Below, piece by piece: positions 39,741-44,389 of a stretch of 64,000 bases of DNA. This stretch comes from an uncultured Nitrososphaerota archaeon (GTDB lineage Archaea > Thermoproteota > Nitrososphaeria > Nitrososphaerales > Gagatemarchaeaceae): contig OY969807.1 of assembly GCA_963703285.1 (NCBI GenBank), forward strand, positions 224,001 through 288,000, written 5' to 3'. How positions within the stretch are numbered: position 1 is the first letter of the stretch; each line of letters begins with the position of its first letter. Made by a program: the position numbers and the translations under genes. Under the pieces are notes generated by a model that did not search any database, was not told the origin of the DNA, and saw only the letters and a program-made list of their open reading frames with translations.

Positions 39741-39947
39741 ATGGGTCGAAAAGCAGTTCTGTTCGGGTTCTGGCTACTCGGGTACTTCCTAGGCTTCTTC
39801 GCCTGGCTCGTGCGAGCGCCGGTCATCAACATGGTTCAGAACCTCGGTGTGAGCGCGGACGTCGCGGGCGCCCTGATCACCGGGTTGGCTGGGTCCATAG
39901 TGATGCTGGTAGGGGTAATCCTCTGGAGCTACCTCTCGAACGCGTAG
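39741..39947 (+). CDS. Small two-TM membrane protein (paralog of 12565..12765)
   Basis: Shared MGRK..L.GF.L.G..LGF.AWL.R.PV.N.....GV..DVAGA...G.AG. Confidence 0.75.
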   Translation: MGRKAVLFGFWLLGYFLGFFAWLVRAPVINMVQNLGVSADVAGALITGLAGSIVMLVGVILWSYLSNA

Positions 39948-39965: not shown

Positions 39966-40715
39966 CTAGGCAGGAAGATTCGAGCTATCGCCAACTTTTG
40001 TTTCAGACGGTAGCTCCGCCCGCTTTTCATTCTTCAACATGTTGAGCTTCTTGTTCAGGATGATCGTCAGGGCGATGAGCGCTACGAACGGCACCCAGGT
40101 TATCAACAGGTAGGCCGCACCGAGCTCTATCTCCACAGATTCGAATGTCGCGGCCACTGCGAGCATCACCACCACTATGGCGAGGTTTATCACAAACTGC
40201 CATCCCTCGATGGTCCAGTTCACGGGATTCCCGCCGCTGGAGAAGGCCCACCTCCAGATCGCGTAGAGCAGGTAGAGTCCCTCGCCGGTCGCGACGGCGT
40301 AGGCCGGGAGTTCGATGTAGCTGTGGGGGAACAGCAGCAGGAGGAGGAAGACGACCAGGAAAGGGGGGTCGTGGTACGATATGGCGTAGACCTCGAGGAT
40401 CCTTGCCGTCGAGTAGAGGGAGAACGCGAAGAGGGCGGCGCCTAGACCGGGTACCATCTCGAAGAGGGCTATCCTGAAGTTGTTGGAGAAGATTCCCCAG
40501 AACAAGACCAGCAGGCCCGCTCCCGCGAACTCGTTGGTAATCTGGTTCCCCTGGCTAGTGTAGAGCGCCTGTTCGCCTGGGAAGAAGGGAAGGCTCGAGA
40601 CGACGAAGAAGATGACGACCTCGGCTCCGAAGAGGATGACGTAGAGCATCAGGCCCCTCGTAGCATACGCGGCGAGCCCCTTTCTCAGCCCTACGCTAGG
40701 CCGCTCGTTATCCAT
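39966..40715 (-). CDS. SpoIIM/DUF95 family membrane protein
   Basis: IFSNN..IAL...PGLG, PHSYIELPAY, LAVAATFE. Confidence 0.8.
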   Translation of the reverse strand: MDNERPSVGLRKGLAAYATRGLMLYVILFGAEVVIFFVVSSLPFFPGEQALYTSQGNQITNEFAGAGLLVLFWGIFSNNFRIALFEMVPGLGAALFAFSLYSTARILEVYAISYHDPPFLVVFLLLLLFPHSYIELPAYAVATGEGLYLLYAIWRWAFSSGGNPVNWTIEGWQFVINLAIVVVMLAVAATFESVEIELGAAYLLITWVPFVALIALTIILNKKLNMLKNEKRAELPSETKVGDSSNLPA

Positions 40716-40988
40716 CTTGTCCAATCGCGGGGTACCATTGCACCAAGAGAAAAAGCTCCCTACAATCCAACTGGCGAATCGCAATCGAGACTTCGTCAGC
40801 TGCCGTATAACAATTTAGCCATCGGCTCTTCTGAATGAATTGGACGGTAATAAGCAAGAAGGTTCCGCAAGTTATTTATGTAAAGTCTGACGGGCTATAC
40901 GAGTGGGCCGAGTTCGTGGAAGTCCCAAAGGGTACACGCGGCCATATTGAGGTACATGCCCCGGTATGGACAAGGGGAGGTGTCTAGG

Positions 40989-42146
40989 ATGAGCCTTGAG
41001 ACTCGGCCGAGTGAACACATACCCAAGGAGGACTTCGCCTCGATGGTACGAGAGATTGCGGTGGTCGGCCCTCGAGTCCCCGAAATTGCCCGTAGACTAG
41101 GCAGACACAAGGAGACGGTGAGGTACTGGTACAAGAAGCTGGAGGATCACAACTTCGCAATTCAAGGCATCACAAACAACCAGGCATTCGGGCTCAGGAG
41201 AATTCTGCTGCAGGTGACGATCGGAGAGGACTACGAGGACTACGTGAAGCCCCTCATGTTCGCCATGAATGAACTCTGTTACGTGACCAGCTATGCAAAA
41301 GCGCTCGCGGAGGATTACTACAGCGTAAACTGTGCCGTGCCGGAAGGGCTCCTGTCGGAGTACTTCTCGTTCGTCGAGGACTTAAAGGAGATGGGACTCT
41401 TCAAGAGTCTTGAGTTCTACGACCTAGGATGGAGCCGTAACATCCCCATGCGAGGAGAATTCTACGACTTCGCAACGGGTAAATGGGAGTTCGACCTGAA
41501 GTCTCTGACAGAACGAGAGTCGGCCTTCCAACCACCAGAACAGTACGATGAGGTCAAGTTCGACAAGATAGACCTTCTCATCGTGAAGGAGCTCTACATG
41601 GACGCTACCCGTGAGCTGCGGGAAATTCAGAGGTCTATAAGCCAGAACGATGGCGTCGATATCAACTACAAGACCCTCTGCTGGCACCTGAAGGAGCACG
41701 TTCTGGGCAGAAAGATGATAAAGGGTTTCAGGATCAACTGGATGGGAACGCGGTGGGACGCTGTGACGGACAGGCCCGAGCAGAAGTCGCACAGCTACAT
41801 CGGTGTTCATTTCATGGTCAAGAACCCGACTGAGGAGGAGAGGTTGGAGCTGATGAAGAAGTTCGACCGCCTGCCGGTCGTCTGGATGGAAGGGGCTGGG
41901 CTCGATTACTTCGCGGAACTTGCAGTCCCTACCGAGATGATGATTGACTTCATGGAGTTCCTTACGAAGACCATGGCGCCGGTTCGCGACAGGGCCACTT
42001 TCCACATAATGGACCAGCGCAACGCAGTGGGATTCTTCATCTCGTATAAGCTCTATGACGAGGAGACGATGTCATGGAGGTTCAACAGGGAGGAGTTGTT
42101 AGTGAAGTTCAAGGCGTTGGAAGCACAGGTCAGGCAGAGCTCCTAA
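40989..42146 (+). CDS. Tandem Lrp/AsnC-like wHTH transcriptional regulator
   Basis: HTH1 (EIARRLGRHKETVRYWYKK) and HTH2 (FDKIDLLIVKEL..DATR.LREI...TLCWHLKEH), each followed by a RAM-like alpha/beta segment. Confidence 0.75.
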   Translation: MSLETRPSEHIPKEDFASMVREIAVVGPRVPEIARRLGRHKETVRYWYKKLEDHNFAIQGITNNQAFGLRRILLQVTIGEDYEDYVKPLMFAMNELCYVTSYAKALAEDYYSVNCAVPEGLLSEYFSFVEDLKEMGLFKSLEFYDLGWSRNIPMRGEFYDFATGKWEFDLKSLTERESAFQPPEQYDEVKFDKIDLLIVKELYMDATRELREIQRSISQNDGVDINYKTLCWHLKEHVLGRKMIKGFRINWMGTRWDAVTDRPEQKSHSYIGVHFMVKNPTEEERLELMKKFDRLPVVWMEGAGLDYFAELAVPTEMMIDFMEFLTKTMAPVRDRATFHIMDQRNAVGFFISYKLYDEETMSWRFNREELLVKFKALEAQVRQSS

Positions 42147-42268
42147 AGATTTCAGAACTTTGCGAATTCGAGCGCCGTCCGCGTTGGCGTGCACGTTGCC
42201 CTAGAAACGCACCTAGGCTAACACTGGGCATGCGGAGCAGGGGCACGCGAAATTATTGCGTCCGAGGT

Positions 42269-42282
42269 TGGGAGGAAAAAAT
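42269..42282 (-). terminator. Oligo-T terminator of the peptide gene
   Basis: Minus strand reads TAG GGATTTTTTCCTCCCA right after the stop. Confidence 0.55.
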
Positions 42283-42284
42283 CC

Positions 42285-42410
42285 CTAGGTTCCGCCGAAT
42301 CCGCTGCCAGCAACCGCCGCTGGGTTGATGTGTACGCCGAATGCTGCCAGTACAACAGACGCTCCGCCTAGTGCCATCATTCCGTATCTGATCTTTTCGT
42401 CGGTAGTCAT
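42285..42410 (-). CDS. 41-aa hydrophobic, Gly-rich peptide
   Basis: MTTDEKIRYGMMALGGASVVLAAFGVHINPAAVAGSGFGGT; TTTATC about 26-31 nt upstream, T6 tract downstream. Confidence 0.65.
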   Translation of the reverse strand: MTTDEKIRYGMMALGGASVVLAAFGVHINPAAVAGSGFGGT

Positions 42411-42432
42411 GGGCACCCTACACCTGACAGTG

Positions 42433-42516
42433 GAAGATAAATCTTCAGTATACACATGAACCCGTCTATTAGGGCATCCATGAGACATCTAACTCTCTAT
42501 GCCCTAGGCATGAGAC
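42433..42516. promoter_or_regulatory. Operator-like repeats upstream of the peptide gene
   Basis: GAAGAT-AA-ATCTTC 42433-46 overlapping the TATA; TAGGGCAT(42470-77)/ATGCCCTA(42499-506) inverted; CATGAGAC direct at 42479 and 42509. Confidence 0.5.
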
Positions 42517-42669
42517 GAGAAACGTTGTCCCGTAACAGTGTCCTAGTCAGATGTTCTATAATCAACGAAGATAAGTTTTGTGTTTCATCGAAAAAGAGGT
42601 GAAGTACATGGGAACTTCGTGTTTGCCACCCTTTTTTATGATGGAGTTGGAGCTTCCCTGGAGTCAGAA

Positions 42670-43428
42670 ATGGAAGCAGAGTACGACGCTCTGGCCGAAG
42701 AGTATGATGCGACCAGGGAGTCGGCCACCCAGAAGGAGATCGATTCTCTTGCAAGGTCGTTTGAGGGGTGCAGGACGATTCTCGACGTTGGAGTCGGGAC
42801 CGGCCGATTTGCAAAGCCCCTCTCTGATTTGGGGTTCGATGTCACCGGTGTCGATGTCTCTCGCAGGATGCTCTCGAAGGCGCACGAGAAAGGAGTCGAG
42901 CGGCTCGTTCTCGGAGACGCGTACAAGCTGCCCTTCACTGGCAAGTCCTTCGACGGCTCTGTCATTATCCACGTGCTCCACGTCGTCGCCGACTGGATGA
43001 CGGTCATGCGGGAAATGGGACGGGTCACCAAGGGCCCGGTCGTCTCGCTCCTGAGGGTGCCGCAGGGGCAGGGGCGCTCCCCGCTCCCGCAACAGTCGAT
43101 TGGCATCGCCGGCCCGCCGCCCGCGTCCAAGGGGTACCCCGTCAGGACTCAGCACAGGATGTGGCAGAACGAGCTCGAGCTGAAATCGAGGGTCCCCCCG
43201 GCCAAGCTCGAGAGGATCAGGGACGAGACGATATCGATACCCGTCGCCGATGCCATGAGGAGTCTCCAGGCCAAGCGGTCCATGGGCGCGCAGATAATGC
43301 CTCCCGAGGTGCGACAGGAGATGCTGGAGAGGATAGTCGCGATGACCGGCACCCGGACCGTCCAGAGGAGGATAGTGGAGGACCTCGCTGTCTGGCGCGC
43401 CGACGACCTGACGGACCTGGCCGAGTGA
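42670..43428 (+). CDS. Class I SAM-dependent methyltransferase
   Basis: ILDVGVGTGRF, GVDVS..ML, GDA..LPF....FD. Confidence 0.9.
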   Translation: MEAEYDALAEEYDATRESATQKEIDSLARSFEGCRTILDVGVGTGRFAKPLSDLGFDVTGVDVSRRMLSKAHEKGVERLVLGDAYKLPFTGKSFDGSVIIHVLHVVADWMTVMREMGRVTKGPVVSLLRVPQGQGRSPLPQQSIGIAGPPPASKGYPVRTQHRMWQNELELKSRVPPAKLERIRDETISIPVADAMRSLQAKRSMGAQIMPPEVRQEMLERIVAMTGTRTVQRRIVEDLAVWRADDLTDLAE

Positions 43429-43467: not shown

Positions 43468-44253
43468 TCAATCCGCCCAGTTCGGGAAGGCGCGACGGTT
43501 CGAGGTCAGCACGCTCCGCACCTGCCCCCGTCTCAGCTCGATGAAGCTCGCCGACGCGGACCGCTCCTCTTCGGTGATTCCCCACTCGCCCGGGATTGCG
43601 GCGACAATCTCTTCGATGACCGAGTCAGGCACCGCTTCGATCCGCCTAAGCGTCGACTCGAACGAGGAGGGGCCTCTCACCAATACCGCTATCTCGGGGA
43701 GGACCGGCATGGGGACCCTCAAGAACGAGCCCTGCTCCAGCGAGTCGACCGTCCAGTTCGGACCCGTGAAGCTGTGGGTGAAATCCACCATGAAGTACCT
43801 GAACCCTCCCGGTACCGCCTGAAGCAGGTGATTCTCGGCCCTGTCCCTGTCTTGCGTCAGTATCCAGTTGTCGAGGCAGACGGTCCCGGGAAGCACCTCT
43901 GAGTTAACGAGCTCTTGGTCCAGACTGGTCTGGCGGTTCAGTATCTGAGAGAGGTCCGACGCGTTGGCGACAACCTCCGAACCCTGGTGGAGCCCGGGCT
44001 CAATCGCCCTGTTCTGCAGGTCGTTCGAGTGAGCTATCATCTCCGAGCTCACCTCCACCAGCGCGCTCGGGGGTGTCGGGAGGCCGGCGGTGTGCGCCAG
44101 CCAGTGGCCAAGGTGCTCGTTGACAGCCGCCCTCGATCCTTTGGAGAACTTCACTAGGTACGTCAGGCCGTCGTCGCACTCCATGAAGTGAGGACCTGTC
44201 GCGCCTCTGTTGATCCCGACGTCGCGCACAGCCCTCACAGCCTTGACCTGCAC
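43468..44253 (-). CDS. HipA-like (HipA_2/PI3K-like) kinase
   Basis: G.T.P...ECDDG..YLVKF, NE.LG..LA...GLPTP, DNWI...DR...N.L, VDF.HSF. Confidence 0.8.
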   Translation of the reverse strand: MQVKAVRAVRDVGINRGATGPHFMECDDGLTYLVKFSKGSRAAVNEHLGHWLAHTAGLPTPPSALVEVSSEMIAHSNDLQNRAIEPGLHQGSEVVANASDLSQILNRQTSLDQELVNSEVLPGTVCLDNWILTQDRDRAENHLLQAVPGGFRYFMVDFTHSFTGPNWTVDSLEQGSFLRVPMPVLPEIAVLVRGPSSFESTLRRIEAVPDSVIEEIVAAIPGEWGITEEERSASASFIELRRGQVRSVLTSNRRAFPNWAD

Positions 44254-44389
44254 TCTAAGCTGGCCCCACCTCCGGCACTTTGCAGGGGCTCTTAATCCTG
44301 ACTGGCTGGAGTTCATCTCGATTCAACCCGAAGCCTTTAAGAAACTCGACGAGACTGCGAGACGAATGGCCGGGGCTGATGGGGAAGGA

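Follow-up and report, generated by a model that had tools for sequence, protein, structure and literature searches.

A conserved gene pair for a tandem Lrp-like regulator and a small glycine-rich peptide in soil Nitrososphaerales: a possible archaeal peptide/receptor cassette

The RRNPP systems of Bacillota and their phages (Rgg/SHP, ComR/ComS, PlcR/PapR, Rap/Phr, and AimR/AimP) pair a cytoplasmic helix-turn-helix (HTH) receptor with an adjoining gene for a peptide of roughly 16 to 80 amino acids (aa). In some Rgg/SHP groups the two genes are convergent. RRNPP surveys, in their accessible text, place these systems in Firmicutes and their mobile elements, and the accessible part of one (PMC11343458) describes both signal-bearing and signal-less pro-peptides, some of them tandemly duplicated. 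Here we describe a gene pair of similar outline in a 64,000-nucleotide (nt) stretch of DNA (the window; contig OY969807.1, positions 224,001 to 288,000, assembly GCA_963703285.1) from an uncultured Nitrososphaerota archaeon of the Gagatemarchaeaceae, whose genome is a single contig of 2.25 Mb. The pair consists of a gene for a 385-aa regulator and a convergent mini-gene for a 41-aa peptide, their stop codons 138 nt apart. It shares with RRNPP systems the HTH protein beside a small peptide gene and the presence of several cassettes per genome, and the active part would likewise be the C-terminal end of the pro-peptide. It differs in that the putative receptor is a tandem HTH-plus-RAM protein rather than an HTH-plus-TPR protein, that the sequences are unrelated, and that the hosts are archaea. 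Because the TPR receptor is absent and homology is lacking, the window cassette is not a member of the RRNPP group.

The regulator is closer to the Lrp/AsnC proteins (FFRP), such as ST1022, E. coli Lrp and AsnC, and P. horikoshii PH0140, in which an HTH and a RAM domain, the ligand-binding part, form a single unit of about 150 aa that dimerizes and assembles into higher oligomers. An earlier note, made from the sequence alone, had described the window protein as having two HTH- and RAM-like halves. The AlphaFold2 (AF2) model, built from 93 homologues, is confident (mean pLDDT 92.9, pTM 0.90) and shows, twice over, a three-helix HTH with a beta-alpha-beta-beta-alpha-beta domain after it, and then a C-terminal helix; DSSP placed the RAM strands and helices of the model at residues 69 to 151 and 270 to 348. 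In Foldseek searches the top whole-chain match was NirDL, a tandem Lrp-like protein (4ch7, E 7e-9), and each half was matched by the single regulators AsnC, Lrp, ST1022, and PH0140 with probability 1.00. A profile of the 93 homologues matched the S. tokodaii Lrp/AsnC protein ST1022 (E 3e-6) over two stretches, the listed one covering query residues 33 to 131, and a sibling mutant entry, 2efo, matched residues 195 to 251 in the second half. On the strength of the modeled fold and these structural and profile matches, the description as a tandem Lrp-like protein is right.

Two features set the regulator apart from the Lrp/AsnC family, namely its fused architecture of two units in 385 aa with an extra C-terminal helix and the lack of a curated-model match. 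Whereas the known ligands of Lrp/AsnC proteins are amino acids, the candidate ligand here is a peptide encoded by the linked gene. Pfam gave HTH matches only at residues 17 to 55, all below threshold, and the matches listed for the protein at E ≤ 0.1 include none to HTH_AsnC-type or AsnC_trans_reg; precomputed PF13404 or PF13412 assignments exist for a minority of the homologues. No NCBIfam family matched the regulator or the 41-aa peptide, and PADLOC returned nothing above noise for either. We found 162 homologues, many of them named "DNA-binding Lrp family" by JGI, and regard them as a new tandem-Lrp family; the host's own genome has ten paralogues.

The siroheme decarboxylases NirDL and AhbAB (4ch7 and 4czd) have the same tandem or paired Lrp-like fold (TM score 0.51 on the query, 0.61 on the target), but they are only 11 to 13% identical to the window protein, which has ten paralogues, no heme-related family in its context, and strongly conserved HTH helices. 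Among the homologues the HTH blocks vary less than the RAM blocks do (entropy 1.29 and 1.46 versus 1.78 and 1.77), and the residues of the recognition helix are invariant in the alignment. Taken together, these properties suggest a regulator that would bind DNA rather than an enzyme.

The peptide gene and the regulator gene stay together over a wide range of divergence. All relatives are metagenome-assembled genomes (MAGs), and counts across such kin are not independent. Starting from the peptide, we gathered 59 distinct copies, of which 53 are convergent to a regulator homologue; the stop-to-stop gaps of these 53 run from −26 to 151 nt, except at one frameshifted locus (L028, −196). The other six comprise a copy at a contig end (L030), a copy with a disrupted frame (L068), and four orphans (L066, L073, L076, and L077). 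From the regulator side, we took the best 80 homologues in GTDB representative genomes, all Nitrososphaerota MAGs and some of them Candidatus Gagatemarchaeum, which gave 78 testable loci. In 70 of these, a peptide gene of the window type (class 1 below) lies 3′ of the regulator, convergent and at most 151 nt away. Five of the remaining eight have a headless peptide gene (class 3 below), and one has a class-1-like open reading frame (ORF) about 380 nt away. The small ORF beside the regulator that the earlier note had predicted for its homologues is therefore present when the pair is approached from either gene.

When 301 genomes of the class were searched with a profile, the peptide turned up only in families f1, f18 (4 of 9 genomes), and f24. 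Every real distant copy was convergent to a regulator homologue, even where the regulators share only about 25% identity. Families f12 (1 of 180 genomes) and f23 each gave a single match, which falls within a long frame lacking a regulator; f15 gave none in its 39 genomes. Both f12 and f15 are ammonia oxidizers. Two class-1 pairs occur in the host genome itself, and their flanking genes are unrelated: a SpoIIM-like protein, a methyltransferase, and a HipA-like kinase adjoin the window pair, and a hexapeptide transferase, a GT4 enzyme, and an MscS-like protein adjoin the second. No conserved third gene was found by comparing these two sets of flanks, those of the other loci not having been systematically clustered, and because the two sets differ, the module appears to be just two genes.

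Several loci depart from this arrangement in their details. Some cassettes look decayed (L028, L043, L045, L065, and L068), with a partial regulator match or a peptide frame that is shifted or extended to 54 to 95 aa. The orphan class-1 genes lie at L066:1865-1981, L073:1808-1924, L076:2807-2929, and L077:2976-3098; those at L076 and L077 have AGGAGAG ends and T-rich, terminator-like runs. In the host genome, a 2.24-kb segment is duplicated at 97.8% identity (G000:C1:1736039-1738277 and ~2160475-2162713; L079:6040-8278 and L080:5476-7714). It spans the genes for a class-2 peptide and for its regulator along with two small divergent ORFs (121 and 109 aa), so that the cassette duplicates as a unit.

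The 41-aa ORF, whose translation agrees with that quoted in the earlier note, is a real protein-coding gene under purifying selection. With the single peptide as the query, homologues at E ≤ 1e-3 were found in 23 of the 24 other genomes of the family, the 24th (G019) giving E 0.106, and a genome may hold up to five copies. All but one of the 59 distinct copies start with ATG, and the intact ones are 38 to 48 aa long. Synonymous sites are saturated (proportion of synonymous differences, pS, 0.61 to 0.76) and the corresponding nonsynonymous value, pN, is low. For the whole peptide the pN/pS ratio is 0.50; it rises from 0.32 in the N-region through 0.47 in the hydrophobic stretch to 0.83 in the tail, and among orthologues the value for the N-region falls to 0.16. 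Arg8 is encoded by six different codons across the copies, so the N-region is conserved as protein and not as DNA. A profile search of 1.84 billion proteins returned 93 clusters of 38 to 98 aa, none of them a fusion, and these 93 clusters make up a new small-protein family. In the ESM Atlas it matched only unnamed clusters (0.88 to 0.89); the nearest named one, a phage holin family at 0.84, is a lead only.

The window peptide can be divided into a conserved N-region (residues 1 to 10), a 17-residue uncharged helix, an invariant Gly25, and a 16-aa Gly-rich tail, NPAAVAGSGFGGT. Its AF2 model has a confident continuous helix from residue 3 to residue 23 and a low-confidence tail. In all 94 class-1 peptides parsed, the last residue before the tail (position −1) is Gly; 84 of them have A, S, or T at position −3, and 88 have a tail of 13 to 17 aa. 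Cys occurs in 7 of 95 tails. Among the orthologues of the window pair the head hardly varies while the tails are very different, and by its sequence the window tail is a diverged member of a fast-evolving clade. Between copies within a genome, head identity averages 0.53 and tail identity 0.37, the head being the more similar in 40 of 48 pairs, which agrees with the constant head and more variable tail anticipated in the earlier note.

Two more specific interpretations of the tail were tried and rejected. An N-terminal X-His copper motif on a cleaved tail is not a general feature, since only 54 of 94 peptides have His at position +2, against 18 with Lys and 6 with Arg. In double-glycine leaders, such as those of class II bacteriocins and ComC, the GG is followed by the mature peptide, and a C39-peptidase ABC exporter is linked. 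Only about two to four residues follow the GG in most class-1 peptides, and no conserved exporter adjoins them.

When we surveyed 28 regulators from six genomes, picked regardless of peptides, three classes of partner emerged: 10 regulators had a class-1 gene, four a class-2 gene, and one a class-3 gene, with none detected at 13. Five of the ten paralogues of the host genome have a peptide gene (p1 and p2, class 1; p3, class 3; p9 and p10, class 2), and no convergent motif-bearing peptide gene was seen at p4 to p8 or at eight regulators of other genomes. Class-1 peptides combine a helical hydrophobic head with the Gly-rich tail. Class-2 genes are also convergent, with a gap of 4 or −4 nt, and encode a basic N terminus, a hydrophobic helix, and the motif A-H-G-[VL]-H, followed either by one Gly/Pro-rich unit or by three tandem 16-aa units ending in GDPGG.G.PN; the repeat unit is as long as the class-1 tail. 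Class 3 consists of convergent mini-ORFs of 16 to 63 aa without a hydrophobic segment, carrying one to five copies of [DE]P[IM]GG[FAV]GPS. They were found at five of eight seemingly peptide-less loci (L191, L192, L195, L200, and L202) as well as at p3. They have a common conserved promoter with a TATA box at −32 to −25, and their repeats differ from one another by synonymous changes.

In a quick tree of 89 regulators, those of class 3 form one clade (SH-aLRT 98) nested inside the class-1 regulators (SH-aLRT 100 and 98), and the class-1 neighbors of this clade have peptides with the tails LDPIGGVGP and LDPTGPGPLT. Because of this nesting, class 3 looks like class 1 that lost its head. The retention of the tail alone in class 3, the nesting of its regulators, and the tail repeats of class 2 make the Gly-rich tail, with the general motif P-[LI]-[DE]-x-[IV]-G-G-x-G, and not the hydrophobic head, the conserved core common to all forms, the probable functional unit, and the candidate partner of the regulator. 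A distant regulator at L101 (G084b) is met, at 68 nt from its stop, by a convergent ORF whose product ends in ..LDWVGGVVDLG; this ORF, which reaches only E 1.8 against the class-1 profile, may represent a further divergent peptide class.

The mini-gene seems to be transcribed from a promoter of its own. The TATA box and the T6 tract noticed earlier are both present (Table 1), and A/T makes up at least 96% at positions −29 to −27 in 56 loci aligned at the ATG. Since the spacing between the TATA box and the ATG is fixed at about 27 nt, the sequences imply a leaderless transcript from a dedicated promoter. Oligo-T serves as a terminator in archaea, and the T6 tract is a candidate for one. About 48 nt upstream of the ATG, 24 of 55 copies have TCATG, whereas shuffled sequences predict 2.5; because the copies are kin, this enrichment is overstated. 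Clade-specific CATATG-centered palindromes, candidate operators, also lie upstream of mini-genes. The palindrome AAGCATATGCTT overlaps the TATA box in a class-1 clade with a 6-nt gap (e.g., L041, L042, L045, and L054), and GCCATATGGC immediately precedes the ATG in class 3 (L191, L192, and L195).

The regulator mRNA, unlike that of the mini-gene, is probably leadered, because the Shine-Dalgarno-like GGGGAGGTG precedes its ATG. The DNA around the TATA-like box of the regulator is conserved in four orthologous loci. A 50-aa ORF at 40835-40987 (+), which ends 1 nt before the regulator ATG, was rejected as a gene because one orthologue interrupts it with a stop. Its conservation is confined to a stretch, KK.PQVIYVKSDG, that spans the TTATTTAT box, and this stretch is most likely the regulator promoter, conserved at the DNA level. 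The region of the pair is AT-richer than its flanks, as had been noticed (GC 0.48 to 0.56 over 40600-42999 versus about 0.58 to 0.66), and the dip recurs at the second pair in the genome. A search of 40500-42900 against Rfam found nothing except one chance-level match (E 0.58).

Table 1. Features of the gene pair and of its putative control signals (window coordinates)
Feature	Position	Strand	Basis or remark
Class-1 mini-gene, 41 aa plus stop	42285..42410	-	ORF, homologues, selection, linkage
TATA box ATTTATC of mini-gene	42436..42442	-	−32 to −26 from ATG
T6 tract, candidate archaeal terminator	42276..42281	-	Begins 3 nt past TAG stop
Conserved element TCATGTGTATAC, candidate operator	42448..42459	-	Just upstream of the B recognition element (BRE)/TATA box of mini-gene; TCATG enrichment; putative function
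Tandem Lrp/AsnC-like regulator, 385 aa	40989..42146	+	ORF, AF2 model, Foldseek, profile match
Regulator layout (residues): HTH1 13-53; RAM1 57-151; linker; HTH2 193-239; RAM2 244-348; C-terminal helix 367-384			
TATA-like box TTATTTAT of regulator promoter	40872..40879	+	About 110 nt before regulator ATG
Shine-Dalgarno-like GGGGAGGTG	40974..40982	+	7 nt before regulator ATG

A conserved gene pair, selection on the protein, a fixed promoter, a dispensable head, and tandemly repeated tails are what any account of these loci has to accommodate. The one we favor, to which we give a little less than an even chance, is that the pair is a conserved cognate peptide/receptor cassette of two genes, analogous to RRNPP systems but not homologous with them. 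It would comprise a cytoplasmic tandem Lrp/AsnC-type regulator and a convergent mini-gene transcribed independently and without a leader. The peptide would be the cognate ligand of the adjoining regulator, bound at the RAM pseudo-dimer and switching DNA binding, and the controlled site would most likely be the promoter of the mini-gene itself, closing a feedback loop. In classes 1 and 2 the N-terminal helix would insert the peptide into the membrane or carry it across, cleavage after the invariant Gly, with a small residue at −3, would free a unit of 13 to 17 aa, and this unit would act as an autocrine or cell-to-cell signal and then be taken up again. Several cassettes with different tails in one genome would provide separate channels. 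We infer DNA binding, peptide binding, export, cleavage, and re-import from the sequences.

Some properties of the pair are in line with this proposal. The RAM blocks are more variable than the HTH blocks, which we count toward the plausibility of a receptor. The invariant Gly, the small residue at −3, and the match in size between tail and repeat are, indirectly, what one would expect if a unit were released by cleavage. The genome codes for Opp/Dpp-type binding proteins, which could contribute to an uptake route, and the accessible text of PMC10640624 reports peptide ABC transporters for the family. The three units of class 2 and the one to five units of class 3 also recall tandem-repeat pheromone precursors such as the Phr-type duplicates and yeast alpha-factor, with the difference that processing and release are only putative here; the repeats could instead be multivalent ligands or slippage products. 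Among public sequencing runs with the locus, none is RNA; four DNA runs from one soil study contain part of it.

A number of observations weigh against the cassette as a peptide receptor system. As far as is known, Lrp/AsnC proteins take single amino acids or other small molecules as ligands rather than peptides. Of the 94 class-1 peptides, 82 have a net-neutral n-region, and this neutrality, together with a head conserved above the tail and small-xxx-small patterns, is unusual for a mere Sec signal. Class 3 has no export signal, and if all classes share one mechanism, that mechanism may be purely intracellular. Paralogous peptides of one genome have nearly identical N-regions, so only the tail could give specificity; divergence of the tail does correlate with that of the RAM domains (partial Mantel r 0.355), but so does that of the head (r 0.431), and the signal reflects general divergence rather than anything specific to the tail. 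Comparison of the two own-genome class-1 pairs revealed no conserved linked protease or exporter gene. Finally, the four orphan peptide genes have no regulator homologue within 1.8 to 2.9 kb, and 13 of the 28 surveyed regulators have no detectable peptide gene, so that the linkage is strong but not absolute. The peptide-signaling idea of the earlier note has in this way come through the comparisons of adjacency and coding conservation, while a plain secretion signal, as it had pictured the head, is disfavored by the conserved head, the neutral n-regions, and class 3.

The regulator might instead control the peptide without sensing it. The peptide would then be a regulated effector: an antimicrobial of archaeocin type, a surface or metal-binding peptide, or a precursor for modifying enzymes whose genes lie elsewhere. 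Local regulators do usually adjoin their targets, clade-specific conserved elements lie beside the TATA box of the mini-gene, and orphan peptide genes exist without a regulator; multicopy peptides with variable tails would suit antagonistic peptides, and tandem core repeats are found in precursors of ribosomally synthesized and posttranslationally modified peptides (RiPPs) too. We nevertheless consider an effector, the main rival to the cassette, rather unlikely. The two own-genome class-1 pairs share no neighboring gene for immunity, transport, or modification, and the tails are short and Gly-rich, few of them containing Cys. A dedicated 385-aa regulator for each 40-aa peptide, maintained down to 25% regulator identity, also exceeds the needs of simple control. 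The RiPP precursor that the earlier note had offered as an alternative loses ground for want of a conserved neighboring enzyme.

If the head rather than the tail were the active part, the class-1 peptide could be a single-pass membrane anti-regulator whose cytoplasmic N-region (D4, K6, R8, Y9, and G10) holds the regulator at the membrane until a stimulus frees it, or else a membrane-damaging toxin or holin-like peptide checked by the regulator or by its overlapping mRNA. The strong constraint on the N-region, the most constrained part of the peptide, would suit a tether, as would the continuous helix and the 17-residue uncharged stretch with its conserved small residues; a small hydrophobic peptide in a multicopy two-gene module, whose nearest named Atlas cluster is the phage holin family, would suit a toxin. 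Both are weakened because the Gly-rich motif, not the head, is common to all forms: class 3 lacks the N-region and the helix yet keeps the regulator, the promoter, and the convergent layout. In type I toxin-like membrane peptides, by contrast, the helix is the active part, and the membrane toxin proposed in the earlier note is less plausible for the same reason. A tether would furthermore lack pair specificity, given the almost identical N-regions of paralogous pairs in one genome, and we regard it as quite improbable. To the toxin we give next to no credence: conservation of D4, K6, R8, Gly25, PL, and GGxG is atypical of type I toxins, PADLOC shows nothing above noise, and relatives of the regulator were not found on viral contigs. 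The mini-gene might also act in cis, read-through from a strong leaderless promoter running antisense to the 3′ end of the regulator and being tuned by translation of a Gly/Pro-rich ORF, as in attenuation or transcriptional interference. Stop-to-stop gaps are mostly 0 to 36 nt and sometimes negative, so transcripts must overlap in most loci, and the ORFs are indeed rich in Gly and Pro. The gap widens to 95 to 151 nt in the window clade, however, with a T6 tract past the stop in the window, and specific residues are kept over saturated synonymous sites, just as the repeats keep their amino acids through synonymous changes. A purely cis-acting role has no need of the conserved head and tail motifs, and there is little likelihood in it.

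The remaining genes near the window pair complete the picture of the locus. At higher coordinates than the mini-gene are adjacent genes for an S-adenosylmethionine (SAM)-dependent methyltransferase at 42580-43428 (+) (Methyltransf_11, E 3e-20) and a HipA_2-like kinase at 43468-44316 (−) (E 7e-16). Both gave weak PADLOC matches (mad2, 1.5e-11, and PDC-M66A, 3e-7), and they may be a defense or toxin-antitoxin-type pair unrelated to the cassette. Upstream of the regulator, a SpoIIM-like membrane protein is encoded at 39966-40784 (−) (PF01944, E 6e-10), with a 68-aa hydrophobic ORF at 39741-39947 (+) beside it that has no Pfam match; neither has a counterpart at the second cassette.

Our literature searches found no archaeal peptide/receptor cassette and no description of this pair. 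The Gagatemarchaeaceae genome paper (PMC10640624) contains neither "Lrp" nor "quorum" in its main text, and its supplements might list such genes; in the accessible portion of PMC12700828, "archaea" occurs only in the reference list. For signaling in archaea, the accessible text of PMC12240190 lists a carboxylated acyl-homoserine lactone (AHL) and diketopiperazines and describes the subject as little known. A broader proposal, which we hold to be doubtful at present, is that non-ammonia-oxidizing soil Nitrososphaerales (Gagatemarchaeaceae and neighboring families) use encoded peptide pheromones, Gly-rich and 13 to 17 aa long, each sensed by its own tandem-Lrp receptor, with several private channels per cell. 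If true, this would be the first peptide-based cell-to-cell signaling in Archaea, arisen independently of the bacterial RRNPP systems. If the peptide is the ligand, it would also widen what RAM domains sense, from amino acids to peptides. Cell-to-cell signaling in archaea is barely understood, and the cassette is a concrete, sequence-defined candidate for it; a soluble regulator and synthetic peptides of 13 to 17 aa would permit testing in vitro without culturing the host. Even if signaling fails, there remain a new small-protein family, a new tandem-Lrp family, and the linkage between them, a pairing that present annotation pipelines overlook.

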